A stretch of 64,000 nucleotides of DNA from an uncultured Nitrospiraceae bacterium (lineage in GTDB: Bacteria > Nitrospirota > Nitrospiria > Nitrospirales > Nitrospiraceae), in NCBI GenBank assembly GCA_963706325.1, contig CAVPLT010000007.1, positions 352,001 to 416,000 of the forward strand, in the 5' to 3' direction. Below the pieces are notes generated by a model, which was not told the origin of the DNA, did not search any database, and worked only from the letters and a program-made list of their open reading frames with translations. A program made the position numbers and the translations under genes. Positions 10,186 to 26,179 of the stretch are shown here, one piece after another (positions within the stretch are counted from its first letter, which is position 1; the number at the start of each line of letters is the position of its first letter).

Positions 10186-12684
10186 ATGAACAACAGTGCC
10201 TGTTACCGAAAAGAACTCGTGACCTCACCGAACCAAGCGCGCCGAATCTCCTCCACAATCGGCCTGCGGAAGCCGTGTCTTCTTGTGACGCTGGTCGTGA
10301 CCCTTGCGGGCCTCAATCACGCGTTTGCGCAAAGCGACGCCATCACCGCCGAAGCGGACAGCCGGCCTAAGAATCAATATCAGATTTCCCAGCAACCGTT
10401 AAACACGGCCTTGCGAGACTTTGCATTGGCCTCTGGGTTACAGGTCAGTTTTCCCGACGACATCGCCCGAGGACGGACGTCGCGTGAAGTCGCCGGATCC
10501 TATACGCCCGAAGAAGCCCTGTCGGAGTTACTTGCCGGAACAGGACTCTCGTTTCGCTTTACCAGCGCCGACACGGTGACCTTGGAGCGGGCAGGTCCAT
10601 CCATCGTCCCTCTCGCGCCGGCCGCAACAAACCAACGCTCTGCCGGTTCGGCCGATAATGGACAGGGCGGAACGCCGACCAGCGTCAAGCCGATCGTGGT
10701 GCCTGAAATCGTGGTGAAGGACGTGCATGAACGGAACGAGCCGGACCAGGAGGCGGTGAAGGAAATAGCTGGAGCGGTCAATGTCGTCACCCGCGAGGAA
10801 ATCCAGCGAGCCAGGCCAAAAAACGCAGACGAAATGTTGCGACGCGTTCCCGGTGTCAATGTGCTGGATGAATATGGCCAAGGATTAAGACCGAACATTG
10901 GAATACGGGGCATGGATCCAAGGCGGAGCAGAAATATTCTCCTGCTGGTAGATGACATTCCCATTCAACCGGCCCTCTTTGGAGATGCCTCGACCTACTA
11001 CATGGTGCCGATCGAACGCATCGATCATATTGAGGTGATCAAGGGGGGAGCTACTGTCCAATATTCGCCCAATACTCAAGGCGGCATGATCAATTTCATT
11101 CAGAAAAGGATTCCCACGACACCGACCTTCTCCACGACGAACACGTTCGGCAGTTTCAATCTCTTTCAATCCGACACACAGTACGGCGGCTACTTCGGAA
11201 ATTTCGGAGCGCAATTGGGATATATCCGGCGCCAGTCGGACGGGTTCAGAGACCGGAGTAAATCGCAGTTGGACGATTTCACCATGCGGTTCGAAGCGAA
11301 TCCCGATGATAGAACCCGCCTTACGACCAATATCTCTTGGTACGACGAAACGACGCAGACGCCGGGAAGTCTCACGCCTACTCAATATCGAAACGATCGC
11401 ACCCTCGCGGGAAAGCCACTGGATGAGTTTAAGGGGCAACGAGGGGCGATCGATGTGACGGCGAGCCGGGAGATCGACGCGCGCAATACGGCCAAAGTGA
11501 TCGTGTACGGCAATGTGTTTGAACGGAACTGGTATATCCAGGATCAAGCCGCTAATGGCACGTTGCTTTCAACCAGCACGAACTTCTTGCGCAAGTTCAA
11601 TGTATTCGGCGTTATGCCGCAACATCAGTTCAATTTTTCCCTCTTTGGCTTGGATCAAAAAGTCACGTCCGGCGTTCGATATCACGCGGAACGACTCACC
11701 GATATCACAGGGATCGGCACGGCCGGCTCGAAAATCAGCCGTACCACCAACAATGCCGATCTGGAATCGGTGGCCTATGCCGCCTATACGGAAACAGCCA
11801 TCCGATTGACCCAGGCCCTCACCATTTCACCTGGCATACGGTGGGAGCAGGTCAACCAAAGCCGTGAAGCGATGAATGCCATCCCGCCGGCGACGCTGCC
11901 CAATTTCAAAAGCAATAACACCACTCAAGGCCTGATCTATGGGACGGGAGTGAAGTATCAACTCACCCCGGACAGCATGTTGTTCGGCCACGTTCATACG
12001 ACATTTCGGCCACCCACCTTTGCCAATGCGGTCGATCCGACCAGCGGAACCACACAAGACCTTGAGGCCGAGCGCGGGTTGAGTTCGGATATCGGGGCCC
12101 GGTCCACCATCGTGCCCGGTGTGAGCGCGGAAATTGCCGTGTTTCGAACCGACTTCAGCAATCAGATCGTTCAGCAAGGAAGCCAGTTCGTGAATGCGGG
12201 GAAGACGCTGCAGCAAGGAATCGAAAGCAGCGTCAGTCTCGATTGGGGCGAACTCGTACGTCCGCTGCAAGGCTTCGTCACCAGGGCGAATGTCACCCTC
12301 TTGCGGCCCAAGTCGCTCTTTGGCGCCACGAACGGGAAGGATCTTCCCTATGCCCCGCGCATGACGTTCTATGGATTAGTGGGCTATTACCACCCCACCG
12401 GTGCCTCGATTGAGGCGGATGCCACGTACGTCGCCCAGCAATTTACTGATGGCGCGAATACCCAGACGGAGAATGCTCTCGGGACGACGGGAGCCATTCC
12501 CTCCTATACCATTTGGAATTTACGGCTCAACTATGCGCCGCCCAAGGCTCGCTGGGCGGTTTTCGCAGGCGTGCGCAACCTCACCGATGAATCATTCATT
12601 GCGCAACGCACAACCGGAAGTTTCATCGGTATTCAGCCCGGCGAAATCAGGAATTTTTACGGTGGCTTCTCATGGAAGTTTTAG
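10186..12684 (+). CDS. TonB-dependent outer-membrane receptor with N-terminal signalling (STN) domain, FecA-like
   Basis: Signal peptide, STN 'ISQQPLNTALRDFALASGLQV', plug 'NIGIRG...IEVIKGG', C-terminal 'FSWKF'. Confidence 0.92.
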   Translation: MNNSACYRKELVTSPNQARRISSTIGLRKPCLLVTLVVTLAGLNHAFAQSDAITAEADSRPKNQYQISQQPLNTALRDFALASGLQVSFPDDIARGRTSREVAGSYTPEEALSELLAGTGLSFRFTSADTVTLERAGPSIVPLAPAATNQRSAGSADNGQGGTPTSVKPIVVPEIVVKDVHERNEPDQEAVKEIAGAVNVVTREEIQRARPKNADEMLRRVPGVNVLDEYGQGLRPNIGIRGMDPRRSRNILLLVDDIPIQPALFGDASTYYMVPIERIDHIEVIKGGATVQYSPNTQGGMINFIQKRIPTTPTFSTTNTFGSFNLFQSDTQYGGYFGNFGAQLGYIRRQSDGFRDRSKSQLDDFTMRFEANPDDRTRLTTNISWYDETTQTPGSLTPTQYRNDRTLAGKPLDEFKGQRGAIDVTASREIDARNTAKVIVYGNVFERNWYIQDQAANGTLLSTSTNFLRKFNVFGVMPQHQFNFSLFGLDQKVTSGVRYHAERLTDITGIGTAGSKISRTTNNADLESVAYAAYTETAIRLTQALTISPGIRWEQVNQSREAMNAIPPATLPNFKSNNTTQGLIYGTGVKYQLTPDSMLFGHVHTTFRPPTFANAVDPTSGTTQDLEAERGLSSDIGARSTIVPGVSAEIAVFRTDFSNQIVQQGSQFVNAGKTLQQGIESSVSLDWGELVRPLQGFVTRANVTLLRPKSLFGATNGKDLPYAPRMTFYGLVGYYHPTGASIEADATYVAQQFTDGANTQTENALGTTGAIPSYTIWNLRLNYAPPKARWAVFAGVRNLTDESFIAQRTTGSFIGIQPGEIRNFYGGFSWKF

Positions 12685-12760
12685 CCATGAGCCAGTCGCC
12701 GACTTTCGATGACCTTTATGGGTGCGACTGATTTCTGACACCCACTAGTAAAGGATACCC

Positions 12761-13462
12761 ATGTTGGAAGCCATCAACCTCACCAAACGATTCGGCGCCA
12801 CCGTGGCGCTCGACAGCTTGAATCTGGCGGTACAGCCGGGAGATATTTATTGCCTCCTCGGCGCCAACGGCGCGGGCAAGACCACGACCATCAATTTGTT
12901 TCTCGGTTTTATCGAGCCGAGCAGCGGTGAAGCGCGGGTCAACGGCGTGGATGTCCAACGCGGACCCGACGCCACCAAGGGCGCCATCGCCTATATACCG
13001 GAGACGGTCGCGCTGTATCCGCATCTGACCGGAATGGAAAATCTCGAGTATTTCGCCGGCCTGGCGGGCCACGAGGCTTCGCGCGAGCAGTTCGGGAGCG
13101 CACTGAGCGAGGCCGGTCTTAAAACCGAGGCACACTCGCGCAAGGTCGCCGGCTACTCGAAGGGGATGAGACAAAAGGTCGTCATCGCGCTCGCCATCGT
13201 CCGGGGCGCCAGGGCGATGCTACTCGATGAGCCGACCTCGGGCCTCGATCCGCACGCGGCTAACGATTTCGGCGAGCTGTTGCGGCGCATGACTGCGTCA
13301 GGGGTCGCGATACTGATGGCCACGCACGATTTATTTCGCGCCAAGGACATCGCGACCACCATCGGCATCATGAAGCATGGCGTCCTCGGCGTGAATTTGT
13401 CCGCGTCCGAAGTCAGCCACACCGACTTAGAGCACATCTATCTGAAGTACATGAGGGACTGA
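12761..13462 (+). CDS. ABC transporter ATP-binding protein
   Basis: Walker A GANGAGKTT, signature YSKGMRQK, Walker B LLDEPT. Confidence 0.93.
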   Translation: MLEAINLTKRFGATVALDSLNLAVQPGDIYCLLGANGAGKTTTINLFLGFIEPSSGEARVNGVDVQRGPDATKGAIAYIPETVALYPHLTGMENLEYFAGLAGHEASREQFGSALSEAGLKTEAHSRKVAGYSKGMRQKVVIALAIVRGARAMLLDEPTSGLDPHAANDFGELLRRMTASGVAILMATHDLFRAKDIATTIGIMKHGVLGVNLSASEVSHTDLEHIYLKYMRD

Positions 13463-13464
13463 CC

Positions 13465-14964
13465 ATGCAGGCACACACCGACGCCCAAGCCGTTCACGCG
13501 TCCGCCGGCCCAAATCGGAATGAGCGCAGCTTGTTCGGTCCGGCCTGGCGCGTGGCACACAAGGAGGTGGCCGATCTCTACAGCGACGGCCGCGTCTTAT
13601 GGGCCATGGCAGCCGTGGCTCTGCTGATCATGATCTCGGTCGCGTTGTCCTGGCAGGACTTCCGTGCGCGCGAGGCGGCGCGCACGCAGGCAGATACGGC
13701 AGTGCGTCATCAGTGGGAGAATCAAGGCTCCAAAAATCCTCACAGCGCGGCGCATTTCGGCCAGTACGCCTTCACGCTCGAATCGGTCCCGGCGGCGATC
13801 GATCCGGGCACGCTTGCCCATACCGGAAGCGCGGTCTGGCTTGAGCCGCACCGCAGGAACCTGTTCGGTTTTCATCCTGCCGAGGACCAAACCGCGGCGG
13901 TTCGCTATGGGCCGCTGACGCCGGCATTGCTGCTGCAAGTCGTCGTGCCATTGCTGATCGTGTCCTTCTGCTTTGCGTCGGTCGCCGGTGAACGCGAGGC
14001 GGGGACGCTGCGGCTCGTCTTGAGTCTGGGACTCACACGCGGTCAACTGTTTCTGGGTAAAGCCCTCGGCGTCGCTCTCGCAGGCGCGCCGCTTGCCGCG
14101 CTGCTCTTTGCGCCGGTGGCAGTGCTGGGGCTGATCCAGATGGGGCAGGGCGCCGCCGGTACCGACCAGGTCGCGCGGCTGCTGCTGATGGCGGTCGTCT
14201 ATTGCGCCTACTGGAGCGTGTGGGTGCTCATCGGTCTGGGGGTATCAAGCCGTGCAGCCACGGCACAGCGCGCGCTCATTGTCCTGTTGGCGCTGTGGGC
14301 GCTCGCCACGCTGCTGGCTCCCCGGGTCGGCTCCTTCCTGTCTGAACAGATCGCCAAGCCACCCTCCACGGAGGCATTTTTCGATGGCATACAGAGCGAT
14401 CTGGCTCACGGCCTTGACGGCAAGTCTCCCGCCGAAATGCGTTACCAGGAACTCGTCGAACAGACGTTGAAGGAGTACAACGTGAAGAGTCTGCAGGAGT
14501 TGCCGGTTGGCTTCGGCGGCCTGCGGCGGCGCTCACAAGACGCCTATTCCGAACGCGTGCATGATAAACACTTCGACGCGGTCCACGACACCTGGCGACG
14601 CCAGGCGAGGCTGCACATTCTTGTCTCGGCCGTAAGTCCCCTCATTCCGGCGCAGGCCTTGTCCCAGGGCCTCGCAGGCACAGATGTCGAGCATCACATA
14701 CATTTTTCTCAGGCCGCCGAGCGCTATCGCCGCTACTTCGTCGACTTCACGACCGACGCCCTGACCGCAGGCGAACAGGGAACGGAAAAACGAATGACTG
14801 CCGGTAACGAGATGTGGCAATCGATCAAGGCATTCGAATACCGGCAGCCGACGGCGGATGAGGCATTGCGCGGGCAGTGGCCGGGCCTGCTGGTTCTTGC
14901 GGCATGGCTGATGGCAAGCGCCTGGTACGCTTACCGATCATTCCGGCGACTGAATTTTGAGTGA
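13465..14964 (+). CDS. ABC-2 type permease, DUF3526 family
   Basis: 'KNPHSAAHFGQYAF', 'GEREAGTLRLVLS', 'LAGTDVEHHIHFSQAAERYRR'. Confidence 0.85.
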   Translation: MQAHTDAQAVHASAGPNRNERSLFGPAWRVAHKEVADLYSDGRVLWAMAAVALLIMISVALSWQDFRAREAARTQADTAVRHQWENQGSKNPHSAAHFGQYAFTLESVPAAIDPGTLAHTGSAVWLEPHRRNLFGFHPAEDQTAAVRYGPLTPALLLQVVVPLLIVSFCFASVAGEREAGTLRLVLSLGLTRGQLFLGKALGVALAGAPLAALLFAPVAVLGLIQMGQGAAGTDQVARLLLMAVVYCAYWSVWVLIGLGVSSRAATAQRALIVLLALWALATLLAPRVGSFLSEQIAKPPSTEAFFDGIQSDLAHGLDGKSPAEMRYQELVEQTLKEYNVKSLQELPVGFGGLRRRSQDAYSERVHDKHFDAVHDTWRRQARLHILVSAVSPLIPAQALSQGLAGTDVEHHIHFSQAAERYRRYFVDFTTDALTAGEQGTEKRMTAGNEMWQSIKAFEYRQPTADEALRGQWPGLLVLAAWLMASAWYAYRSFRRLNFE

Positions 14965-14971
14965 GGACGAC

Positions 14972-17224
14972 ATGATCCGATTACTGCATCTCGAATGGCA
15001 GAAGGATACACGCGACCGGTCCTTATGGATCCCGATCGCCTTCCTGTGCCTGTTGCTGGTCGCGGCGGCGATCAACGGCGCCGGTGACGTGACCGGAGCC
15101 AGGGACTCCATAGCGGCTTCGAATGATTACGAGTCGGCGCGCATGGCTGAACTCCAGCACAGCGCCGGGGAAGTCGCGCGGGGGCATCAACCCGTTCAGT
15201 TCGCGCTGGACGGCTCGAATCCTGCCCGCGTGGGTGGAGGAGACGGTGCGCGTCGAGCCTGGTTGCCTCCGGCGGATTTCGCCTCGTTCGCGGCCGGTTA
15301 TCTGGGCGCGCTGCCGCAATCGCACACGATCACGACTTGGTCGCGCTACGCGCGCACCGACGGCTATGACCTCAGGAGCCCTGCCAACCACGCGAGCGGG
15401 CGCTTCGATGTCGGCTTCGTCTGCGTGCTGCTCCTGCCGCTCTTCGCGATCGCACTGGGTTACAACGTCTTGTCGGCGGACCGCGAGTCGGGCACGTTGC
15501 GCTTGGTGAGCGCGCAGTCGGTGTCGCTGCCTCGCCTGATCGCCGTGCGCCTCGGATTGCGTCTCGCACTGCTCATGGCCCCCATCGCCATCGTCAGCGC
15601 CGGTCTTTACCTATGGACGGCGTCGGAGATCACGGTAGAAGGAGTATCGAAATGGCTGTTCCTGCTCGGCGCGGTGAGCTGTTATGTCGCGTTCTGGCTG
15701 GCGTTGTGCGGGGTCCTCAACGTGTCAGGGCGCAGTTCATCATTTAATGCGATGACCGGAGTATCTCTCTACCTTGCGTTCACCATCCTGCTGCCCACCG
15801 CCATCCAGGTTGCCGCGACGAAAGCGTTCCCGCCGCCTGCTCGCCTGTCGCTCATTCCCACTATGCGGACGATCACCAGCGAGATCGAAAGCAGCGAGAA
15901 ATCCAAAGCCCTGGTCGAACGCTATTACCGCGACCATCCCGAGGTCGTACCGGCGGCGGACTCGCCGAATAAGATGGAGCCGCGGACCAAGCTGTTTCCC
16001 AAAGCGCTGGAGTTCGACCGCCGCCTGGTCCCGATCATCAAGGAGCAAGAGGCGGCGTCCCAGGCCCAGTCCGATTTTGCACGCCGGCTCTCCATCCTGT
16101 CGCCGTCGTTCGCGTTGCAACTGATTCTCGAACAGTGGGCGGGCAACGACTTGGAGCGCAACAGGGCGTTTGTCCGGCAGGTCGATGCGTATGAACAGGC
16201 GTGGCGCGAGTTCTTCGGACCCAAGATCATGGGGCTCTCCAGGCTTGCCCCGGACGATTATCAGCGCCTCCCGACCTTTCAGTTTCGCGAGGAGCCCGCG
16301 TCGAGCTTCTGGGGGCACGCATTCCTGCCGCTGGGTTCTCTGTTCGCGGCCGGCAGTGTCGCGGTGGGCATGCTGGGATTAGCCCTTCCCAAGTCGTCGT
16401 TACGCCGGCGCAAGAAGCAGGTCACCCGGGGCATAGATGAGCGCTGGGCCCGCAAGGCGCACCGCCGGATAGGCATTTTTGCCCTCGGGTTTTTGTTGCT
16501 CTCCTTAAGCACGGGACTGTTGTGGGCCAATGCAAAATTCCTGTATTGGGACGAACGTTATAAGGAGCGGGTGCGACCGGTTGCCGGTCCGCCGCTGGAG
16601 GCGGCAGGAGTTTCGCTTCAGGAGGTGATGGACCGGAGCAAAGCCGCGGTTGAAGGTCCGGCAACCGTGACGCAGGCCACCCTTCGTTCTGATTTTGGCC
16701 GGCTTCTCTATGACGTCAAACTGCGCGCCGGAGGAAAAGCCAGCACATTTCTCTATGATGCGGCAACCGGAGAGCTTCTTTCCCCGATTTCCCCGGAGCT
16801 GGCCCAAGACATCGCCAGGCAATACGTAAGCGAGAACGCCGAGATCACCGCCGTGGCCACGGAACAGTACACCCCTCGAAAAAAACACAAGGCACAAGCT
16901 GCCGTTCGAGTGGCCTTCAATGATACGAATCGAACCGAAATCGTGCTTGATCACCAGACCGGCGAGATTCTCGAAGACGAAGGCCGTTGGCGCAAGGTGC
17001 ACTTCGCAGTCATGCAATTGCATCAGCTGAACTTCTTTGGATTTGAAAAAACGCTGCTCAATATTCCAGGCGTCCCGCTGCTCCTGATGGGCTTCTCAGG
17101 ATTGGCGTTGTGGGGGCTTCAGCGCGCTCGGGCGAGACGCGCCAAAACCGCCGCATTCACAGCGCACGATGTGCTGTCTCCTCCCGATTCGAGAGGGGAA
17201 CCGGAGCATACCAACCGTGGGTGA
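14972..17224 (+). CDS. DUF3526-type ABC-2 permease fused to a C-terminal PepSY/PepSY-TM module
   Basis: First ~475 aa are permease ('GRFDVGFV', 'SADRESGTLRLV'), followed by 'ARKAHRRIG..STGLLW', PepSY-like 'LYDVKL..YDAATGE' and 'MQLHQLNFFG'; ATG at 14972 follows GAGGA. Confidence 0.78.
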   Translation: MIRLLHLEWQKDTRDRSLWIPIAFLCLLLVAAAINGAGDVTGARDSIAASNDYESARMAELQHSAGEVARGHQPVQFALDGSNPARVGGGDGARRAWLPPADFASFAAGYLGALPQSHTITTWSRYARTDGYDLRSPANHASGRFDVGFVCVLLLPLFAIALGYNVLSADRESGTLRLVSAQSVSLPRLIAVRLGLRLALLMAPIAIVSAGLYLWTASEITVEGVSKWLFLLGAVSCYVAFWLALCGVLNVSGRSSSFNAMTGVSLYLAFTILLPTAIQVAATKAFPPPARLSLIPTMRTITSEIESSEKSKALVERYYRDHPEVVPAADSPNKMEPRTKLFPKALEFDRRLVPIIKEQEAASQAQSDFARRLSILSPSFALQLILEQWAGNDLERNRAFVRQVDAYEQAWREFFGPKIMGLSRLAPDDYQRLPTFQFREEPASSFWGHAFLPLGSLFAAGSVAVGMLGLALPKSSLRRRKKQVTRGIDERWARKAHRRIGIFALGFLLLSLSTGLLWANAKFLYWDERYKERVRPVAGPPLEAAGVSLQEVMDRSKAAVEGPATVTQATLRSDFGRLLYDVKLRAGGKASTFLYDAATGELLSPISPELAQDIARQYVSENAEITAVATEQYTPRKKHKAQAAVRVAFNDTNRTEIVLDHQTGEILEDEGRWRKVHFAVMQLHQLNFFGFEKTLLNIPGVPLLLMGFSGLALWGLQRARARRAKTAAFTAHDVLSPPDSRGEPEHTNRG

Positions 17225-17295: not shown

Positions 17296-19335
17296 ATGGC
17301 ACTGACGATTCGTACCATCAAAGGCCGCATTGTGCTCGCGATCGTGCTGGTGGGCTGTGTCCCGCTGCTGATGGGCCTCGTCCTCGCCTACATGTCGGGA
17401 ATGCAATCTTTGCGGGACCTCATCGGCGGCAACCTGCAGGCGGTTGCGGTTCAGGCTGCCGACCGGGTGACCATGCTGGTCCAGAGCGAAATTCAAGCGG
17501 CCCGTTTATTGGGATCGGCGCCTCTTCGCGTGCGTCAGCCGGTCGAGGCGGCCAATCGTGCCTATCCTCCGGATCCTGCGCAGGCGGACCTCATCATTCA
17601 GGAACGCACTCAAATCTGGGAGAAGGGGAAGGAGGCGGCGGCCCGATTGCTGGATGGAGGCCTCTCGCGCTTTCTCCTCGACACGAAGGTTCGAAGCGGG
17701 GACAAGGTCGTGGGCCTCTTGATCGTCGATCAACATGGATCGTTGGTCGCTGCCAGTTCGGAACCTGATCATTACTCCTTCGGCGGTGAATCGTGGTGGA
17801 AGGCGATCCGTTCCGGCGGCACCGACCACGTATATGTCAGTGAGTTGATTCCGACCAAGGAAGGCTCCTTCCGGACGCCGGAGGAGACGATCGACATCGC
17901 CGTGCCGATTCTGGACGACCGTCACCACACTGTTATCGGAGCCGTCAAGGCTTCCTACCGGTTCGACACTCTCCTCGGTATGATCAACCAAATACGGATC
18001 GGGCAAACCGGCCATGCCATGCTCTTCAATGCCGCCGGGGAGCCTTTAGTCTGTCCGATCCTTCCTCGGCAAGCGCATCGTATACCCAGCCAACTAATGG
18101 CCATGATTGTCTCCTCCGAGCCAGGCTGGGGTATCGCTGATGACGATGGACATGGCGGCGCCGACACAGTAGTTGCGTATGCGCCTGTGACCGGTCTCAC
18201 CTTGCCGGACAACACCTGGCATATTTTCGTCAGACAACAGCCGGTGGAAAGTTATGCTCCGATTCGAGACCAGCTCAGGAATCTGGCGGTGATCGGTCTT
18301 GTCATGGTGGGTCTGTTGTGGGCAATCGGGCGCTACGTCGCGACGCGAATCGCCCGTCCGATTCAAGTTTTGAAGACCGGGGTCGAGGCGATCAGCCGAG
18401 GCACCTACGATGGTCCGCTTGATCTCAAAACCGGAGATGAGTTTGAGGAGCTGGCAGTGGCCGTGCATCGCATGGCCGATAAGTTGCAGGCGTCGCGAGC
18501 GGAGTTGGAGTCTCTCAATGCGGAGCTGACGCATCGGGTGGAAGAGAAGACCGCAGAGATCACTCGGCAGATGCGGAAGCTGGAATTATCTGAACGGTTG
18601 GCGACGCTGGGGAAGGTGGCCAGTGGGATCGCCCACGAAATAAACAATCCCCTCGGCATTATTCTCAACCGAATCGAATGTATGGAGGCCGATGCGGCAC
18701 AGGCCGAGCTGACGGATGAAGTCGGGCGGGATTTAGTCACCATCCGCAGGCAGGCGGAACGGATTTCCCGCGTCACGCGCAGCATCCTCACCTTTTCTCG
18801 CGGCACGGTCTCCACATTGAAGCCGCTCGACCTTAATTGTGTTGCCCGCACCTGCGTGGCGATGGCTGGTGAACGGGTCGCAGGGCGTTCCGTGCGGATC
18901 GATGCGCAACTAGCATCACAATTATCCCCGGTCATGGGAGATCGAGACCGACTCGAAACGGTGCTGCTGAATCTCATCAACAATGCCATCGATGCGGTGA
19001 CGGGACATGTCGAGCAGGGGCTCGTTACGCTGCGCACGACACGGACGATCCTTAACGGCGATGAGTGGGTGCAGATCAGCCTCTCGGATAATGGACCCGG
19101 CATTCCGTCCGCTATCCTCGACCGCATTTTCGATCCATTTTTTACTACGAAGCCGACAGGTCAAGGGACCGGGCTGGGATTGTTCCTCAGTTATGGAATC
19201 GTCTCGGACCATCGCGGTCGCATCGAAGCGCGAAGCAGCGTCGCCGGGGCGACCTTCGAGATCTATCTGCCTACGGTGGGTCTCGGGACATCGCTTCAGG
19301 AAGGAACACCATGGGGATTGCAGGAAAAATCCTGA
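17296..19335 (+). CDS. Sensor histidine kinase (periplasmic Cache-like domain, HAMP, HisKA, HATPase)
   Basis: Two TMs, HAMP 'IARPIQVL..GDEFEELA', H-box 'AHEINNPL', 'FDPFFTTKPTGQGTGLGL'. Confidence 0.93.
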   Translation: MALTIRTIKGRIVLAIVLVGCVPLLMGLVLAYMSGMQSLRDLIGGNLQAVAVQAADRVTMLVQSEIQAARLLGSAPLRVRQPVEAANRAYPPDPAQADLIIQERTQIWEKGKEAAARLLDGGLSRFLLDTKVRSGDKVVGLLIVDQHGSLVAASSEPDHYSFGGESWWKAIRSGGTDHVYVSELIPTKEGSFRTPEETIDIAVPILDDRHHTVIGAVKASYRFDTLLGMINQIRIGQTGHAMLFNAAGEPLVCPILPRQAHRIPSQLMAMIVSSEPGWGIADDDGHGGADTVVAYAPVTGLTLPDNTWHIFVRQQPVESYAPIRDQLRNLAVIGLVMVGLLWAIGRYVATRIARPIQVLKTGVEAISRGTYDGPLDLKTGDEFEELAVAVHRMADKLQASRAELESLNAELTHRVEEKTAEITRQMRKLELSERLATLGKVASGIAHEINNPLGIILNRIECMEADAAQAELTDEVGRDLVTIRRQAERISRVTRSILTFSRGTVSTLKPLDLNCVARTCVAMAGERVAGRSVRIDAQLASQLSPVMGDRDRLETVLLNLINNAIDAVTGHVEQGLVTLRTTRTILNGDEWVQISLSDNGPGIPSAILDRIFDPFFTTKPTGQGTGLGLFLSYGIVSDHRGRIEARSSVAGATFEIYLPTVGLGTSLQEGTPWGLQEKS

Positions 19336-20729
19336 TCGTCGACGACGAGCAGGACGCATTGGACAATTGCCGCCGCATCTTGAGCCGGGTGCCGTATCAG
19401 TGTGTCACGGAGTCCAATTCCGCCCGCGCGCTCGACATCATCCAGCGGGAGCGGCCGGGCCTGATCTTGACCGATCTGCGTATGCCGACCCTGGACGGGA
19501 TCGAGGTGTTGACTGCCGCCAAGCGGCTCGACCCCTCCGTGAAGGTCGTGTTGCTGACCGCCCATGCCAGCGTGCAGACTGCCGTGACGTCCATGCGCTA
19601 CGGCGCGTTCGATTATATTACGAAGCCGTTCGCCAGCGCCGAACTTGTGCAGGTTGCCCGCCGCGCATTCGGTGAGGATGGCGCATTACCGTCGGCCGGA
19701 CCCGGAAAGACCGACGATGGCGCGCGTCTCGACCGGGCGCAGCCGGGAAGGCGTGCCAGCTTTGCGCGTGTGATCGGTGAAAGTCCTGCGATGCAAGCGG
19801 TATTCAACCTGATTGAAAAGGTCGCTCCTACCCATTCCAACGTGTTGGTCTATGGAGAGAGCGGCACGGGAAAAGAGTTGGTTGCCCATGCCATTCATGA
19901 TGCGAGTCTCCGGGCAGACCGTCCGTTCGTTCCCGTGGATTGTGTTTCCCTTCCCGACACGTTGCTTGAATCCGAGTTATTCGGCCATGAGAAAGGCGCG
20001 TTTACGGGCGCGCATATTTCCAAACCGGGACTTTTCGAGATCGCTTCAGGGGGCACGATATTTCTCGATGAAGTCAGCGGGATGAGCCAAACGTTGCAGT
20101 CGCGATTGTTACGGGTCTTACAGGAACGGCAGATGCGCCGAGTCGGCGGCATCCGGTTCATGAGCGTGGATGTGCGCGTGATCGCGGCCTCTAACCAGGA
20201 GCTCGAGGCGGCCTGTCGCCGCGGAGAGTTTCGCGAGGATCTGTATTACCGCTTGAATGTCATCCCTATCGCGTTACCGCCTTTGCGAAGCAGAGAAGGA
20301 GATATTCCACTGTTAGCCCGAGAATTCATTCAGCGGTTTATGAGGCAGCAAGGGCCCGGCGCGGCTTTCGTGCCGGACCTGAGCGCTTCCGCGGCGGAGC
20401 TGTTGTGCGGATACTCGTGGCCGGGTAATGTGCGTGAATTACAGAACGTGATTGAGCGGGCAGCGGTGTTAGCCGATGGGCCTATCATTATGAGCGCGCA
20501 CCTACCGGAACGTCTGCGGGGGCCTGAGAGTGACGACTCCGGGTCCCATGAGACGGCCTCATTCAAGCACGCCAAACAGGCGGCCGTCAGCACGTGGGAA
20601 CGAAGTTTCCTCATAGAACTGTTGAAGCGACATGATGGCCATATGGGGCGCGCTGCACGCGAGTCCGGTGTCGACCGTAAGACGATCGAACGAATGGTAA
20701 AGAAGCATGGCCTGCGGGCCTTGTTCTGA
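19311..20729 (+). CDS. Sigma54-dependent response regulator (NtrC family)
   Basis: Receiver 'ILIVDDE..DLRMP', AAA+ 'GESGTGKE', 'GAFTGA', '[10 protein letters not shown]', C-terminal HTH. Confidence 0.94.
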   Translation: MGIAGKILIVDDEQDALDNCRRILSRVPYQCVTESNSARALDIIQRERPGLILTDLRMPTLDGIEVLTAAKRLDPSVKVVLLTAHASVQTAVTSMRYGAFDYITKPFASAELVQVARRAFGEDGALPSAGPGKTDDGARLDRAQPGRRASFARVIGESPAMQAVFNLIEKVAPTHSNVLVYGESGTGKELVAHAIHDASLRADRPFVPVDCVSLPDTLLESELFGHEKGAFTGAHISKPGLFEIASGGTIFLDEVSGMSQTLQSRLLRVLQERQMRRVGGIRFMSVDVRVIAASNQELEAACRRGEFREDLYYRLNVIPIALPPLRSREGDIPLLAREFIQRFMRQQGPGAAFVPDLSASAAELLCGYSWPGNVRELQNVIERAAVLADGPIIMSAHLPERLRGPESDDSGSHETASFKHAKQAAVSTWERSFLIELLKRHDGHMGRAARESGVDRKTIERMVKKHGLRALF

Positions 20730-20804: not shown

Positions 20805-20824
20805 ATGGGACAGCCATGTCCCAT
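20805..20824. promoter_or_regulatory. Palindromic putative enhancer (UAS) site 1, ATGGGACA-GCCA-TGTCCCAT
   Basis: Perfect 8-bp inverted repeat with the same ATGGG-N10-CCCAT geometry as site 2. Confidence 0.6.
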
Positions 20825-20888: not shown

Positions 20889-20924
20889 CGATACAAATGG
20901 GGCGTGTGCGCCCCATTTGTATCG
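20889..20924. promoter_or_regulatory. Palindromic putative enhancer (UAS) site 2, core ATGGGGCG-TGTG-CGCCCCAT (20897-20916)
   Basis: 16-bp perfect arms CGATACAAATGGGGCG/CGCCCCATTTGTATCG with no downstream U-tract; about 100 bp upstream of a -24 element. Confidence 0.6.
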
Positions 20925-21008
20925 ACTGGGAGTGTATTGTCAAAAATAATGGCTGCATTTGCCGACTTTCTCCTGAGGCGAAATGAGGAACAAGAGTTGC
21001 TCTAGTCT

Positions 21009-21024
21009 TGGCTGTCTTTATGCG
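21009..21024 (+). promoter_or_regulatory. Putative sigma54 (-24/-12) promoter of the multicopper oxidase
   Basis: TGGCTGTCTTTATGCG = GG-N10-GC, downstream of a sigma54 activator gene and two palindromes. Confidence 0.6.
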
Positions 21025-21063: not shown

Positions 21064-21241
21064 AGGACGTGGAGAAGGAAGGACCGGCCTCCTGACTTGT
21101 CCACTCCATGAGGGTGCAGGTCTTCGGACCTGCACCGTAAAAACAGTGCAGTTGTTGTGTGTGAGGACGTGGAGAAGGAAGGACCGGCCTCCTGACTTTT
21201 CCAGTCCACGATGGTGCAGGCTCCTTGCGGGGCCTGCACCG
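21064..21241 (+). ncRNA. Tandem structured leader-RNA candidate (two units, 21064-21137 and 21164-21241)
   Basis: 35-nt identical core AGGACGTGGAGAAGGAAGGACCGGCCTCCTGACTT; hairpins GGTGCAGGTC-TTCG-GACCTGCACC and GGTGCAGGCTCC-TTGC-GGGGCCTGCACC; the repeat is certain, RNA function is inferred. Confidence 0.55.
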
Positions 21242-21295
21242 AACATCTGAGTGCAGCCATAGGGCTGATCATGGATTCAAGAGGAGGTAGGTGTA

Positions 21296-24200
21296 ATGAG
21301 ATCGGCACCAAGGAGATTTAGGGTTCACAGTCGGCGGAAGTCGCCGGTTGCCTGGAAGTTGCTTATGGGAGCACTGCTTCCAACCCTGTGTATCGGGATG
21401 GGTTCCGTTGTATTTGCTGGCGAGACCGACGGGCATGCTATGGCGCACAGTCAGCCGGCGTGGGCTGAGCAACTCAAAGGGCAGACCATCGTCGAGGATG
21501 CACAGGAAGGGCATGTCGAGCGGACGGCCATGATGGAGCGGCAACATCAGCGCATCATGGAGAAGATCAACGACCAGCTCACGCATGATTCCAACAATCA
21601 GCGCACGGGCGGCATGTACAACAACGTGAACATGTTGCACCAGTACGGAGCCGGGGCCCAAGACATGTTGTTGATGTCGAATAGCGGCGCAGAGCCGGTG
21701 TCGTCGTTGGGTGGGCGCTGTCCAGCCAGTGCGCCGGTGCGAAGCTACGACGTCTCGGCCATCAATGTTGAGATTACTTTGAATATGTGGCTGGATTACT
21801 ATCCGGGCTATATGTACGCCTTGACCGAATCCCTTGAGAAGGTCCGCGCTGAAGAGACCAAGAACCGTGAAGCGCGAGACAAAGAAGGCTACGATCCAGG
21901 CGCCGTGACGAACGGCGTGCAGAATCAGTGGATTCAACCATTGGTGCTGCGCGGTAACCAGGGCGATTGCGTGAAGCTCACGCTCCGCAACCAGCTGGAG
22001 GGTGACGAAGAAGTCAGTTTGAACATCCACGGATCCAGCATGATCATCTCGTCCACGGGTCAGCCTGCGACGACCACGAATCCCGACAGCATCGCGCCGA
22101 AGGGAAAGGCCGTGGAGATGGAATGGTATATTCCGCCCACGCAGCAGGAAGGCAGCCGCCAATTCCATTCCTACAGCAACGATCGTGAGTTGACCGTGAT
22201 GGGATTGTTCGGTTCGTTCGTGATCGAGCCGAGGGGGTCGGAATATCTGGAGCCGTTGGGAACCGGCGATCCGATGCCGGCCAAGAGTGGATGGCAGGCC
22301 ATCATCAAGAACGGCGCCGGTCCGGACTTTCGTGAATTCGTCCTCTTTTATCATGAGGTCGGAGATGAAGCGTTTCGTCCCTTGAACAAAAAGGGCGACT
22401 TCATTCCGCAACGGGATCCGCTGACCGACGTCTATCGGCCGGTGGCGCGCGCGCTGAATTATCGCAGCGAGCCGTTCGGCGTGGACAACATGCAGACCCA
22501 GCATGAATATTTCGGGTTCGAGGATGAATCGATGGCCTACAGCGCCTATACGTTCGGCGATCCCGCCACGACGATTCCTCGCAGCTATCTGGGTGACCCG
22601 GCAAAGTTCCGCTTGGTGCACGGTGGTTCCGAAGTGTTCCACTCTCACCATCCGCACGGTGGATCCATCCGTTGGCCGCGGAGCCCGCGGGCGATCGATG
22701 AAATGCCGCTCTGGCATGCGGCGAAGAACGGCCCCGTGAAGTACCCGGTCATCCGGATGAAGTCCGATCGTGTCGACGTGGAAGTGATCGGCCCATCAGA
22801 GACCATGGACTTGGAGACGGAGTGCGGCTCCGGACTCTGTCAGCAATTGGCCGGAGATTTTCTGTTCCATTGCCACGTCGCCCATCACTACATCGCGGGA
22901 ATGTGGGGCTATTGGCGTGTCTACAACACCATTCAGCAAGGGGCGAATCACAATGACGTGATGCCGGACTTGTTGGAGTTGCCGGACCGCAAGGGCCGCA
23001 TCAAGACAGGGGTGACGTCCGATGAGCTGATCGGCAAGACCGTCGATTGGTTCGGGAAGCAGTTCAAGATCATTGAGAAAGGCAAGACCGATTGGAAGGC
23101 GGACCCCGCTATCGTGACGCTGAAAGATTGGGTCGACATGCAGTTCCCACCCCAAGGGCTGCCTGGCCATAAGAAAGATGAGCGGGACCAGACGCGTTCC
23201 TATGATGCCAGCGTGTTGAACTGGGGCTGGCAGGGTACACGCGCGGTGACCGAGCCTGAGAACACCGTGCCGAATCCACGATATCAGTCGGCCCATCCCG
23301 GCGAGCGTCTGCCGATCGTGTTCGAGCCGTTGACCGGCAAGGTGTCGTGGCCTCATCTGAAGCCACATTTCGGGCGCCGCGTGCCCTTTTCAAAGAACCA
23401 CAATCCATCTCCCTGGCTGGAGATGATCCACTTGGAGGAAGATGGATTGCCGAGTTCTTACCCGGCTAAGCCGGGTGAGAACGGGCGTTGGAGCCTGTGT
23501 CCTGAAAATGCCGGATCCAAGAAATACAACGTGCACTTCATCCATACGCCGATGAAGTTGGCCGATAAGCAGGGCGACACGCCTGCGATCGAAGATCCGG
23601 GTGGACTGATCTATGTCTTGCACGAAGAGGAAGCCGCCATCAGGAAGAACAACGACCTGAAGTATCCGTTGGTCGTGCGGTCCAACATCTATGACTGCGT
23701 CGACTGGATGTTGACCAGTGAATGGGAAGACGACGATCACTCGAACTTCCACTCGTCGAAGGTCAACACCCATTGGCACTTCCTGCAGTTCGACAATCAA
23801 TCGTCGGACGGGGTGATCACCGGGTTCTCGAACGAACAATCGGTGCGTCCGTTCACGATGCTCGAGAAGAAAACGGACAAGGGATTGCCGTTGCCCTTGA
23901 ACACCACCTTCACGAAGGCGGGAAAAAAGGGCGATCGAGTCATCACCGTCAAGAATGCCGCGCAGTACCATCCTGAGGTGGAAATCCTGATCGGCGCGGA
24001 TAATGTCGGCGGCAATGAGATCGGACGGGTCAAGTCGATCAAGGGAAATGAAATCACCCTTCTTCGTCCCTTGAAGCACGATCATCCCGTGAAGGATATC
24101 GTGACGGTCGAGTTCGTCAGACAGCGATTCTGGGTCGATGCCGATGTGGGGACGGTGTTCTGGCACGACCATGCGCTGGGTCGGATCACGTGGGGTCACG

Positions 24201-26179
24201 GCGGCTTCGGCACGATGATCGTCGAGCCGGTCGGGTCCACGTACCACAATCCGAAGACCGGGCAACCGATCCGAAGTGGTCCGCTGGCGGACATTCGGAC
24301 CGTCGAACCGGTGGGCTATGGGGTGAACGGCAGTTTCCGTGAGCTCATGGTCCAGTTGAATGACAGCGTGCCGCATACGGTTAATATCGTGACGGCAGGC
24401 AATCCGCCTGGCCAGCCGATTGAAATCGGGCTTGAGGCGGGCAAGACCGTCTCTTTCCCTATGCCTGAGCACATTCCGATGACTCCGATGGCATTTCTGA
24501 ACGGCGGCACGCATACGACCGGAGGCAGCCTGAATTTCCGAGCCGAGCCGATTATCGGCCGTCTCAAGGCGAACCCGGACTCGTCGTTGATCTTCAGTAG
24601 CGCCGCGCATGGCGATCCTTACACGCCGCTGTTGCGCGCATACCTTGGCGATACGATCGTCTTCAGGTTGCTCCAAACTATGACCAACGAGACAATGGTT
24701 TGGACGCTGTCCGGTCATACCTTTTTGACCGAGCGCTACGCAGGTGACGCCAACCGGAAGAACTCCATCCATATCGGAATCGCCGAGCGCTACGATTTGG
24801 TGGTGCCGCAAGCCGGCGGGCCGAGGCTGCAAGCGGGCGACTACATTCATTTTAACGGTCGCGCGTCGAAGTTCTCTGAAGGGGCCTGGGGCATTGTGCG
24901 GGTTCTGGATAAAGATGTGCCGGATCTACAGAAATTACCATCCGGCTACAGCGGCCGAAATGTCATTCCGAAGTCACCGGAAGTGTGTCCATCTGATGCG
25001 CCGGTGAAGACATTCAACGTCGTGTCGATCGACTTCCCGTCGATGAAGTTGAACCCGAGGGCGCCGGACGCCATCGAGGTCGATTTCGAGCGGACGATTC
25101 AAATGGTCAATCCAGACGCCAAGATTTATACCTTGGAGGAGGACGCGGCCTCAGTGGCATCCGGTGTACAGCCGATGCCGCTGACGATTCGGGCCAATGT
25201 GGGAGACTGCCTTAAGATCAGGTTGACCAATAAGATGAAGGAGGGCCGCGCCTCTTTCTCAGCCATCGGGCTGGCGTTCGATCCGAAGGATTCTCTCGGA
25301 GCGAACGTCGGCAATAATCCCGGCGATCAAACGATCGCGCCGGGCGAAAGCCGCGTCTATACGTACTATGCCGATCCATTCCTGGGAGAGACGGCTTCTC
25401 TGGTGTGGGATTGGGGTAACGTCATGACCAATCCGCGCAACGGACTGTTCGGCGGGATCGTGATCGGTCCGAAGGGAGCGACCTATCGCGACCCGAAGAC
25501 CGGTGCGGATATTTCCAACAAGAACAGCTGGATCGCTGACGTCATCGTCAACCGAACGATTCAGGGCTACGAAAATCGTAAGAATTACCGCGATGTGGCA
25601 TTGTTCTTCCAGGATGAAGACAACATCATCGGGACGAGCTTCATGCCCTATGTGCAGAACACGGCAGGATTGACGGCCGTCAATTATCGGTCGGAACCCT
25701 ATAAGTTCCGTGAAGAATCCGGTTGCACCCTCGGCAGGGTATTCCAGCCCTGTTCGGTCGATAAGCCGGAAAGCATCGCTACGCCACTCATCGAGGCGCA
25801 TGCGGGAGATCCCGTACGCATCCATGTCTTCGGCGCGAGCAATGAACAGAACGGCATGTTCAGCGTGGAGAAACATGAATGGCCGATCGAGCCCTTCATG
25901 CCCGGCGCCGACCAGATCAGTGTCGTGGAATTCTCGGGATCCGAGACGTTGGACGCCTTCATCCCAGCGGCCGGCGGAAGCTTCCGCTTGCCGGGTGATT
26001 ACGTCTGGAGCAACCAGCGATTGCCGTATGCGCAATCCGGCCAGTGGGGCCTGCTCAAGGTCCTTCCGTCTGAGGATCAACGGATCCTTCCGTTGACCCA
26101 GCATGGGTCATCGGCAAAGCGAGCGGAGTCAGAGCAGGGAGAGGGCAGGGTGTCTCGCACCTCCACCTCCATGCAGTAG
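21296..26179 (+). CDS. Giant secreted multicopper oxidase, MnxG-like six-cupredoxin-domain architecture (1627 aa)
   Basis: GAGGAGG RBS; signal peptide; Cu motifs HSHHPH, HCHVAHHYIAGM, THWH and WHDH; three internal modules starting CPASAPV/CPENAGS/CPSDAPV. Confidence 0.88.
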   Translation: MRSAPRRFRVHSRRKSPVAWKLLMGALLPTLCIGMGSVVFAGETDGHAMAHSQPAWAEQLKGQTIVEDAQEGHVERTAMMERQHQRIMEKINDQLTHDSNNQRTGGMYNNVNMLHQYGAGAQDMLLMSNSGAEPVSSLGGRCPASAPVRSYDVSAINVEITLNMWLDYYPGYMYALTESLEKVRAEETKNREARDKEGYDPGAVTNGVQNQWIQPLVLRGNQGDCVKLTLRNQLEGDEEVSLNIHGSSMIISSTGQPATTTNPDSIAPKGKAVEMEWYIPPTQQEGSRQFHSYSNDRELTVMGLFGSFVIEPRGSEYLEPLGTGDPMPAKSGWQAIIKNGAGPDFREFVLFYHEVGDEAFRPLNKKGDFIPQRDPLTDVYRPVARALNYRSEPFGVDNMQTQHEYFGFEDESMAYSAYTFGDPATTIPRSYLGDPAKFRLVHGGSEVFHSHHPHGGSIRWPRSPRAIDEMPLWHAAKNGPVKYPVIRMKSDRVDVEVIGPSETMDLETECGSGLCQQLAGDFLFHCHVAHHYIAGMWGYWRVYNTIQQGANHNDVMPDLLELPDRKGRIKTGVTSDELIGKTVDWFGKQFKIIEKGKTDWKADPAIVTLKDWVDMQFPPQGLPGHKKDERDQTRSYDASVLNWGWQGTRAVTEPENTVPNPRYQSAHPGERLPIVFEPLTGKVSWPHLKPHFGRRVPFSKNHNPSPWLEMIHLEEDGLPSSYPAKPGENGRWSLCPENAGSKKYNVHFIHTPMKLADKQGDTPAIEDPGGLIYVLHEEEAAIRKNNDLKYPLVVRSNIYDCVDWMLTSEWEDDDHSNFHSSKVNTHWHFLQFDNQSSDGVITGFSNEQSVRPFTMLEKKTDKGLPLPLNTTFTKAGKKGDRVITVKNAAQYHPEVEILIGADNVGGNEIGRVKSIKGNEITLLRPLKHDHPVKDIVTVEFVRQRFWVDADVGTVFWHDHALGRITWGHGGFGTMIVEPVGSTYHNPKTGQPIRSGPLADIRTVEPVGYGVNGSFRELMVQLNDSVPHTVNIVTAGNPPGQPIEIGLEAGKTVSFPMPEHIPMTPMAFLNGGTHTTGGSLNFRAEPIIGRLKANPDSSLIFSSAAHGDPYTPLLRAYLGDTIVFRLLQTMTNETMVWTLSGHTFLTERYAGDANRKNSIHIGIAERYDLVVPQAGGPRLQAGDYIHFNGRASKFSEGAWGIVRVLDKDVPDLQKLPSGYSGRNVIPKSPEVCPSDAPVKTFNVVSIDFPSMKLNPRAPDAIEVDFERTIQMVNPDAKIYTLEEDAASVASGVQPMPLTIRANVGDCLKIRLTNKMKEGRASFSAIGLAFDPKDSLGANVGNNPGDQTIAPGESRVYTYYADPFLGETASLVWDWGNVMTNPRNGLFGGIVIGPKGATYRDPKTGADISNKNSWIADVIVNRTIQGYENRKNYRDVALFFQDEDNIIGTSFMPYVQNTAGLTAVNYRSEPYKFREESGCTLGRVFQPCSVDKPESIATPLIEAHAGDPVRIHVFGASNEQNGMFSVEKHEWPIEPFMPGADQISVVEFSGSETLDAFIPAAGGSFRLPGDYVWSNQRLPYAQSGQWGLLKVLPSEDQRILPLTQHGSSAKRAESEQGEGRVSRTSTSMQ

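Follow-up and report, generated by a model that had tools for sequence, protein, structure and literature searches.

A leader RNA of a giant multicopper oxidase in Nitrospiraceae that probably targets the ribosome binding site of a paralog

Introduction

Why should the leader of a giant multicopper oxidase gene carry the same structured RNA element twice, and what does this element pair with? The question is raised by a stretch of 64,000 nucleotides from an uncultured Nitrospiraceae bacterium (assembly GCA_963706325.1, contig CAVPLT010000007.1, positions 352,001 to 416,000 of the forward strand). The whole stretch is here called the window, and positions are counted from its first letter. The oxidase itself is not new. 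In the part that deals with it, PMC3578206 describes for Nitrospira and Nitrospina an MnxG-like multicopper oxidase of the periplasm, proposes a role in ROS defence and places one paralog, here called A, in a bd-like oxidase cluster; the enzyme is also treated in passages of PMC9040806, PMC13374858 and PMC6606698. That part of PMC3578206 says nothing on leaders, on cross-regulation of the paralogs or on RNA control.

The original prediction, made from the letters of the window, saw in the element a cis-regulatory RNA. A structured leader RNA is indeed present, but its best partner is the ribosome binding site (RBS) of another gene, and action in cis is not our main reading.

The locus and its promoter

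The oxidase of the window, paralog B, extends from 21296 to 26179 on the plus strand and comprises 1627 amino acids. It is homologous to MnxG by sequence (PDB 9bxa, E 3.6e-80) and was assigned to its clade on a protein tree; it is not the MnxG equivalog NF041487, for which it reaches 129 bits against a curated NCBIfam cut-off of 3100. Its Shine-Dalgarno sequence, AGGAGG, lies at 21282-21287 (plus strand). Two regulatory genes precede it on the same strand: a dCache-HAMP sensor histidine kinase at 17296-19335 (Pfam) and a sigma-54-dependent response regulator with receiver, AAA and Fis-type HTH domains at 19311-20729 (Pfam, NCBIfam). Judged by adjacency, the kinase likely controls the promoter ahead of paralog B. 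Directly 5' of this two-component system, at 10186-17224, are found a TonB-dependent receptor, an ABC ATPase and two DUF3526/ABC-2 permeases, one of them fused to PepSY domains; this transporter block may import the metal sensed by the kinase.

Between the regulator and the leader, two copies of a palindrome, TGGG(A/G)C-N6-G(T/C)CCCA, at 20806-20823 and 20898-20915 (assigned to no strand) are kept in homologues and are likely activator sites. Among the loci with a seed (seed and clades are explained below), the motif occurs at 29 of 31 in clade B and at 17 of 21 in clade E; of 70 A loci none has it. A sigma-54 -24/-12 motif, GG-N10-GC (GGAAC-N5-TTGC), follows at 20987-21000 on the plus strand; it is conserved in homologous leaders and predicts a transcription start near 21012. 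The units had been placed between a -24/-12 promoter and the oxidase RBS. This layout stands, with the conserved element being the one at 20987-21000 and not a second sigma-54 look-alike at 21009-21024, which we rejected because it is not conserved.

A conserved RNA unit without a known class

The two units start at 21064 and 21164, exactly 100 nt apart; they are 93% alike over 57 nt and, as had been noted from the letters, share an identical 35-nt core. All their parts are on the plus strand. Unit 1 consists of a first hairpin (P2, 21065-21107; fold and covariation), which contains the twelve bases GGACCGGCCUCC (21081-21092) that we call the seed, and of a second hairpin without U-tract (P3, 21113-21136; covariation and fold). 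In unit 2, P2 is predicted at 21165-21207, the seed, with the same letters, lies at 21181-21192, and P3 is predicted at 21213-21240. The second hairpins are those originally described, and, again in agreement with that description, no terminator-like U-tract was found after the units.

Both units are more stable than expected by chance (z -5.7 and -6.2; none of 200 shuffles folded equally well), and the plus strand yields the stabler fold. Each unit is predicted to fold into a hairpin as proposed, but its tip differs: AGG-A-AGG/CCU-CCU around ACCGG has to be replaced by AGGA/UCCU closing a 6-nt CCGGCC loop, with a 2x2 GA/GA internal loop below it, predicted and conserved. GGA/UCC is kept without change by all 28 units; the outer AGG of the earlier register varies. 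For 143 of 149 seeds, local folding predicts the hexamer CCGGCC to be more than 70% unpaired; when the whole tandem leader is folded, the minimum-energy structure joins unit 1 to unit 2, with the seeds partly buried. Two mutually exclusive registers had been suggested for the base of the hairpin. A single helix that employs both UCCA blocks accounts for both; the CGUGGA/UCCAYG register has an ensemble probability near zero, though the alignment is still compatible with it (92% of cells paired).

The alignment of 28 distinct units bears out a conserved, covarying RNA: 95.1% of cells are paired, 12 of 26 pairs have changed on both sides, none of 500 shuffles equals this, and slid controls reach 37-55%. 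The second hairpin is paired to 100% across these units. Twelve consecutive bases, GGACCGGCCTCC, never vary among them. In the 2x2 internal loop (21079-21080 and 21094-21095 in the window) both G are invariant in the 28 units; this loop could be a protein-binding or bending motif. Outside the genus of the window the seed caps one arm of a three-way junction, and as a structural reading, the unit of the window would resemble two arms of such a junction minus the base stem.

The unit occurs twice in its own genome, both times here. A DNA search detected it in 17 genomes of the genus out of 24 and in none of 16 from other families; those relatives that bear a name are Nitrospira. All of 20 metagenome matches of the unit pattern precede the same B oxidase. 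A REP- or MITE-like repeat, scattered at random over the genome, can therefore be dismissed. Rfam 15 gave three matches in the window, all far under the gathering threshold, and none in eight homologous loci, in line with the earlier failure to name a known class. The unit is a real RNA family, outside the curated ones and undescribed in the literature covered. Among 28 loci of the genus, 7 have tandem units, 18 a single one, 2 have lost the unit and 1 is cut off; in 2 of the 7 tandems the first seed is decayed. A single unit is also present in a cultured Nitrospira of lineage I (record FP929003, locus L231). The tandem arrangement is therefore not essential.

These counts speak against a cooperative tandem riboswitch, as initially considered. 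A ligand-sensing riboswitch in general, for Mn or Cu, is very unlikely. Its position 5' of a metal enzyme, the invariant G on both sides of the internal loop and the three-way-junction form in other genera would suit such a device, but there is no Rfam match, an expression platform (a terminator or an own anti-Shine-Dalgarno) was looked for and is absent, and the invariant bases are accounted for by the pairing with paralog A described below. A CsrA-binding platform or control by an upstream reading frame can be given hardly any credence. The genome does contain csrA, and the four GGA per core and the short frame GTG-EKEGPAS-TGA are present as reported; the GGA motifs, however, are predicted to be paired in stems instead of displayed in loops, the upstream ones vary, and start and stop of the frame are both intact in just 11 of 30 units, with varying residues in between.

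The RBS of paralog A as pairing partner

The genome of the window (G000) has three giant MnxG-like oxidases: paralog B in the window, paralog A at C7:617834 and paralog C at C1:68350. The 13-mer GGACCGGCCTCCT has a single further exact match in the genome; it is on the opposite strand, immediately ahead of the ATG of paralog A, and spans the Shine-Dalgarno sequence of this gene. An exact match at a start would be expected by chance with a frequency of about 1e-4. The seed of unit 1 is the complement of the RBS at G000:C7:617822-617833, and the complement grows to 13 bp when the next U is counted.

Among 2255 start regions bearing a Shine-Dalgarno sequence, paralog A ranks first for pairing with the seed (-31.5 kcal/mol; the next has -27.5). 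The RBS of paralog B itself, with surroundings only partly complementary to the seed, ranks 292nd (-17.8 kcal/mol). On cofolding, the 5' region of A opens the seed hairpin (-37.6 versus -32.8 kcal/mol apart), whereas B's own RBS leaves it closed. The site of A is predicted to be able to fold GGA/UCC around a GGCCGG loop, complementary to the loop of the seed; only half of the A loci (36 of 72) are predicted to form this hairpin. The promoter of A in this genome shows a TTGACA-N17-TAATGT motif, and a sigma-54 motif was found at none of 70 A loci.

Some further matches deserve mention. The second-ranking partner of the seed is the RBS of an exported protein with IPT/TIG domain (L418:2353-2898; G000:C4:331897, minus strand); GGAGGCCGG is present at the start of 13 of 26 homologues, against a background of 9 in 660 GGAGG starts in G000, and the protein is a possible second target. 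The seed is also similar to the 3' tail of the organism's own 16S rRNA, the natural anti-Shine-Dalgarno, with a different spacer (region G000:C4:188696). When either strand is accepted, the bare 12-mer is present in 293 of 301 genomes; chance matches of this length are common, and we did not use this count as proof. One genome (L099, G051) has two exact A-type sites 300 nt apart before paralog A, each followed by an ATG.

Seeds and sites across the oxidase family

We collected 283 oxidase loci from 131 genomes and sorted them on the protein tree into the clades A (73), B (51), C (71), D (27) and E (45), the sister family F (13) and an outgroup (3). Left out of the counts were the duplicates L053-L059 and L188, the loci L108, L170, L323, L333 and L376, which the tree did not place, and loci with short upstream DNA (3 of 45 E loci in the co-loss count; those with less than 400 nt in the sigma-54 count). 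For 18 genus genomes with B loci paralog A was not fetched, and they were not scored as lacking it.

A site with at most two mismatches precedes the ATG at 72 of 73 A loci and is exact in 52. Leaders of A lack the seed, and those of B to E carry it in sense orientation, about 110-360 nt upstream. The sigma-54 motif accompanies the seed at 30 of 31 B and 20 of 21 E loci. Eleven B loci are seedless despite the presence of A, and in G003 and G183 the seed has been lost. Several of the eleven lie behind another gene, a putative NirK-like ORF. In the genomes of L189, L193, L199, L122, L197 and L198, where A was not found, B has neither seed nor sigma-54 motif; several of these loci show a TTGACA-type motif and a B RBS similar to A's site. 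There B seems to have taken over as housekeeping copy. In the seedless B genes L237/L421, L192, L195 and L241 a target-like 12-mer lies in the first codons and is exact in NITMOv2_4529 of N. moscoviensis; these genes form a possible second class of targets.

In the sister family A-like sites are retained, though more variable, and the seed was not found in the 5 genomes searched, which implies that the target has constraints of its own. A pattern search in these genomes of family f2 gave 18 matches, of which 5 are RBS sites and the other 13 lie outside seed-type leaders. Two of the matches, at a distance of 6-8 kb from the oxidase, resembled compensated seeds; they fall into a conserved coding region, putatively glutamate-synthase-like, and were discarded. 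In viral contigs three matches of the target pattern were seen, none adjoining the oxidase.

Seed and target change together

For 36 seed-target pairs of clades B and E from 33 genomes, 424 of 432 positions are Watson-Crick pairs, 6 are G-U and 2 are mismatches. When targets were shuffled among genomes, none of 20000 trials equalled the observed pairing, in a test that ignores kinship. In nine of the 36 pairs, from three genera, both partners carry a change, at seed position 4 (G103), 5 (G115, G134, G172 and G187) or 7 (G145, G155, G203 and G242). Four pairs combine a changed position 5 of the seed with an unchanged target and form a G-U pair there, the expected intermediate. Seven pairs are neither canonical nor compensated, five of them differing by G-U only; in G081 the seed contains a genuine mismatch. 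As kinship inflates the shuffle test, the independent double changes appear to number about three. In the window's own genus seed and target are both invariant; the covariation is contributed by E seeds and by the B seeds of G103 and G134, which belong to two other genera.

The losses run in parallel, too. Of 42 E loci, 20 have the seed together with A, and in another 20 the seed is absent or has two mismatches and A was not found in a search of the whole genome. Two are discordant: G131 has A with a seedless E, and in G168 the leader is of the C type. The latter locus, L373, encodes an E-clade protein, and its leader was likely swapped by recombination. Seed losses are interleaved on the E tree. 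Of the seedless E copies, 18 of 21 lack the sigma-54 motif as well, and several show sigma-70-like motifs by eye, as if these copies had taken over the housekeeping role.

Could the seed simply serve the gene that carries it? As a cis anti-Shine-Dalgarno switch it would pair with the RBS of B, located 100-200 nt further downstream, and set B translation, its match to A being inherited, as A and B are sister clades. A near complement, AGGAGGTAGGTC, is indeed found in most B loci of the genus, and the C and D paralogs look built for this purpose (see below). The data on B and E, nevertheless, make such a switch unlikely. The RBS of B drifts while the seed stays fixed; the changes in the seed track A; the best cis match covering a changed base is only 4-8 nt long; in G203 and G242 pairing with the own RBS would break; and the low rank of the own RBS and the closed hairpin have been mentioned.

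Complementarity and covariation are symmetric, and A is highly transcribed in N. moscoviensis. One may therefore also turn the direction around: abundant A mRNA would bind the B leader and cause termination or decay, or the leader would merely sponge A mRNA. We regard this as quite improbable, since the duplex covers the GGAGG of A and is at least 100 nt away from the RBS of B, no terminator follows the B units, and where A is lost the seed of the leader decays together with the sigma-54 motif.

Paralogs C and D as an internal control

The seeds of C and D share the same 12-mer yet ignore the variants of A (p 0.27 and 0.75; 74 pairs), and at 17 of 27 loci paralog D retains the seed although A is missing. 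Instead, their own RBS contains GGAGGCCG, an 8-nt complement, in 58 of 68 C and 16 of 23 D loci, compared with 0 of 31 in B and 2 of 20 in E. A second complementary site between seed and RBS is present in 35 of 68 C and 14 of 23 D loci. The seeds of C and D probably act in cis and therefore provide a control for the result with B and E. In the C leader of G000 (C1:68350-68640, minus strand) the seed sits on a three-way junction followed by a U-rich tract, and seeds on three-way junctions are seen in other C/D leaders, e.g., L417, L104, L117 and L093. The C/D leaders are candidates for a separate cis switch or attenuator.

This control also bears on a last alternative, a 12-bp DNA operator, GGA-N6-TCC, bound by one transcription factor and common to all paralogs. 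As double-stranded DNA, seed and target cannot be told apart, and an altered protein could explain variants that are shared within a genome. An operator is highly unlikely, though, as the copies of C and D in the same genomes do not show the variants, the orientation in A is opposite to that in B to E, the site falls into the loop that the covarying RNA stems are predicted to close, and the G-U pairs make up five of the seven uncompensated non-canonical B/E pairs.

Expression data

Nine RNA runs are listed, all with small shares. The contigs of four of them cover only pieces of the coding region and nothing of the leader, and they count neither for nor against. Table S1 of PMC6606698, as far as it concerns the N. 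moscoviensis oxidases, gives a mean RPKM of 4464 for NITMOv2_3987 (rank 19), 1922 for 3660 (rank 53), 185 for NITMOv2_4529 and 14 for 2863. By coordinates and protein match, NITMOv2_3987 is a C with seed, NITMOv2_3660 is an A with the exact site, and NITMOv2_4529 and 2863 are two seedless B-like copies. No B or E with a seed occurs in N. moscoviensis, whose seed-bearing C is, in this one transcriptome, abundant together with A. The 12-mer alone, therefore, does not remove A mRNA. Either the C seed is tied up in cis, or the effect of pairing is on translation alone.

A proposed mechanism

We consider it probable that the leaders of B and E contain a trans-acting antisense module that represses paralog A by pairing with its RBS; the case is built on comparative sequence evidence. 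The kinase and the regulator upstream would switch on sigma-54 transcription of B near 21012. The leader would then display the seed, with the hexamer CCGGCC as a predicted open loop, and the seed would pair in trans with the RBS of A mRNA, as suggested by complementarity and covariation. Pairing could begin as a loop-loop contact between the seed loop and the GGCCGG loop of A and would not depend on Hfq. Hfq was not found in the genome, which is 96% complete, and this fits with a long, perfect and G+C-rich seed. Because the duplex overlaps the GGAGG of A, it should block translation of A. The housekeeping isoenzyme would be shut off or thinned, and one copper-rich periplasmic oxidase would replace another. 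Stabilisation of the module, or of a fragment cut out of it, would be the task of the second hairpin; a tandem copy would double the dose and be dispensable. The active form may be the mRNA in full or a small RNA released from it, and "processed sRNAs" was, among the options raised at the outset, the one closest to the finding. More tentatively, and with less than even confidence, one may imagine a module common to the whole family through which the mRNAs of paralogs exclude each other directly: the intact induced mRNA leader would dock loop to loop on the housekeeping RBS with neither Hfq nor a released sRNA, a three-way-junction module that acts in cis in C and D having been redirected in trans in B and E.

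Related systems

Antisense pairing by hairpin loops has well-known precedents. CopA/CopT and RNAI/RNAII are cis-encoded antisense RNAs of plasmids that interact loop to loop, and the cuckoo RNAs and RsaE are free-standing anti-Shine-Dalgarno sRNAs with multiple targets and CCUCC loops. The unit has in common with these systems a C-rich anti-Shine-Dalgarno motif, here in a predicted hairpin loop, and two complementary loops that could start pairing. The Rfam models of CopA/CopT, RNAI/RNAII, cuckoo and RsaE matched neither the window nor the eight homologous loci.

The closest known case is s-SodF of Streptomyces coelicolor, a proven processed RNA derived from a 3' UTR, which pairs over 18-19 nt and underlies the inverse expression of Fe and Ni SOD, according to the part of PMC3919588 that describes it. 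There, as here, an untranslated part of a metalloenzyme mRNA holds a near-perfect complement of the 5' end or RBS of an isoenzyme; the complement lies, or here is predicted to lie, partly in a hairpin loop, a second stem-loop follows, and the host lacks Hfq as far as was seen. They differ in that s-SodF stems from a 3' UTR and connects unrelated enzymes, whereas the unit belongs to a 5' leader, would pair over 12-13 nt and connect true paralogs, and recurs in several leaders. Also, processing of s-SodF is proven, while the unit is known here from sequence alone. By analogy, the leader module would be a 5' counterpart of s-SodF.

From 5' UTRs, ChiZ and IspZ of E. coli are described in the relevant part of PMC7815308; they arise by premature termination in a host with Hfq and sponge other sRNAs. 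Like the unit, they are regulatory RNAs within an mRNA leader that act in trans (as proposed here for the unit). Unlike them, the unit has the RBS of an mRNA as its predicted partner, no Hfq was found in its host and no intrinsic terminator follows it. Within the openly readable literature and Rfam we found no account of this element or of any base-pairing regulatory RNA in Nitrospira; an uncurated listing elsewhere, e.g., in the motif tables of comparative RNA screens, is possible.

Biological meaning

A regulator and its target have here been predicted from genomes alone, and compensatory changes between two distant loci are a rare kind of evidence for pairing in trans. In N. moscoviensis the target, paralog A, is one of the genes with the highest transcription (rank 53), and it resides in a conserved bd-like respiratory cluster. 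If induction of B or E silences A, the paralogs would be interchangeable isoenzymes under one-at-a-time control. If this is true, the signals of their two-component systems would point to what these oxidases do.
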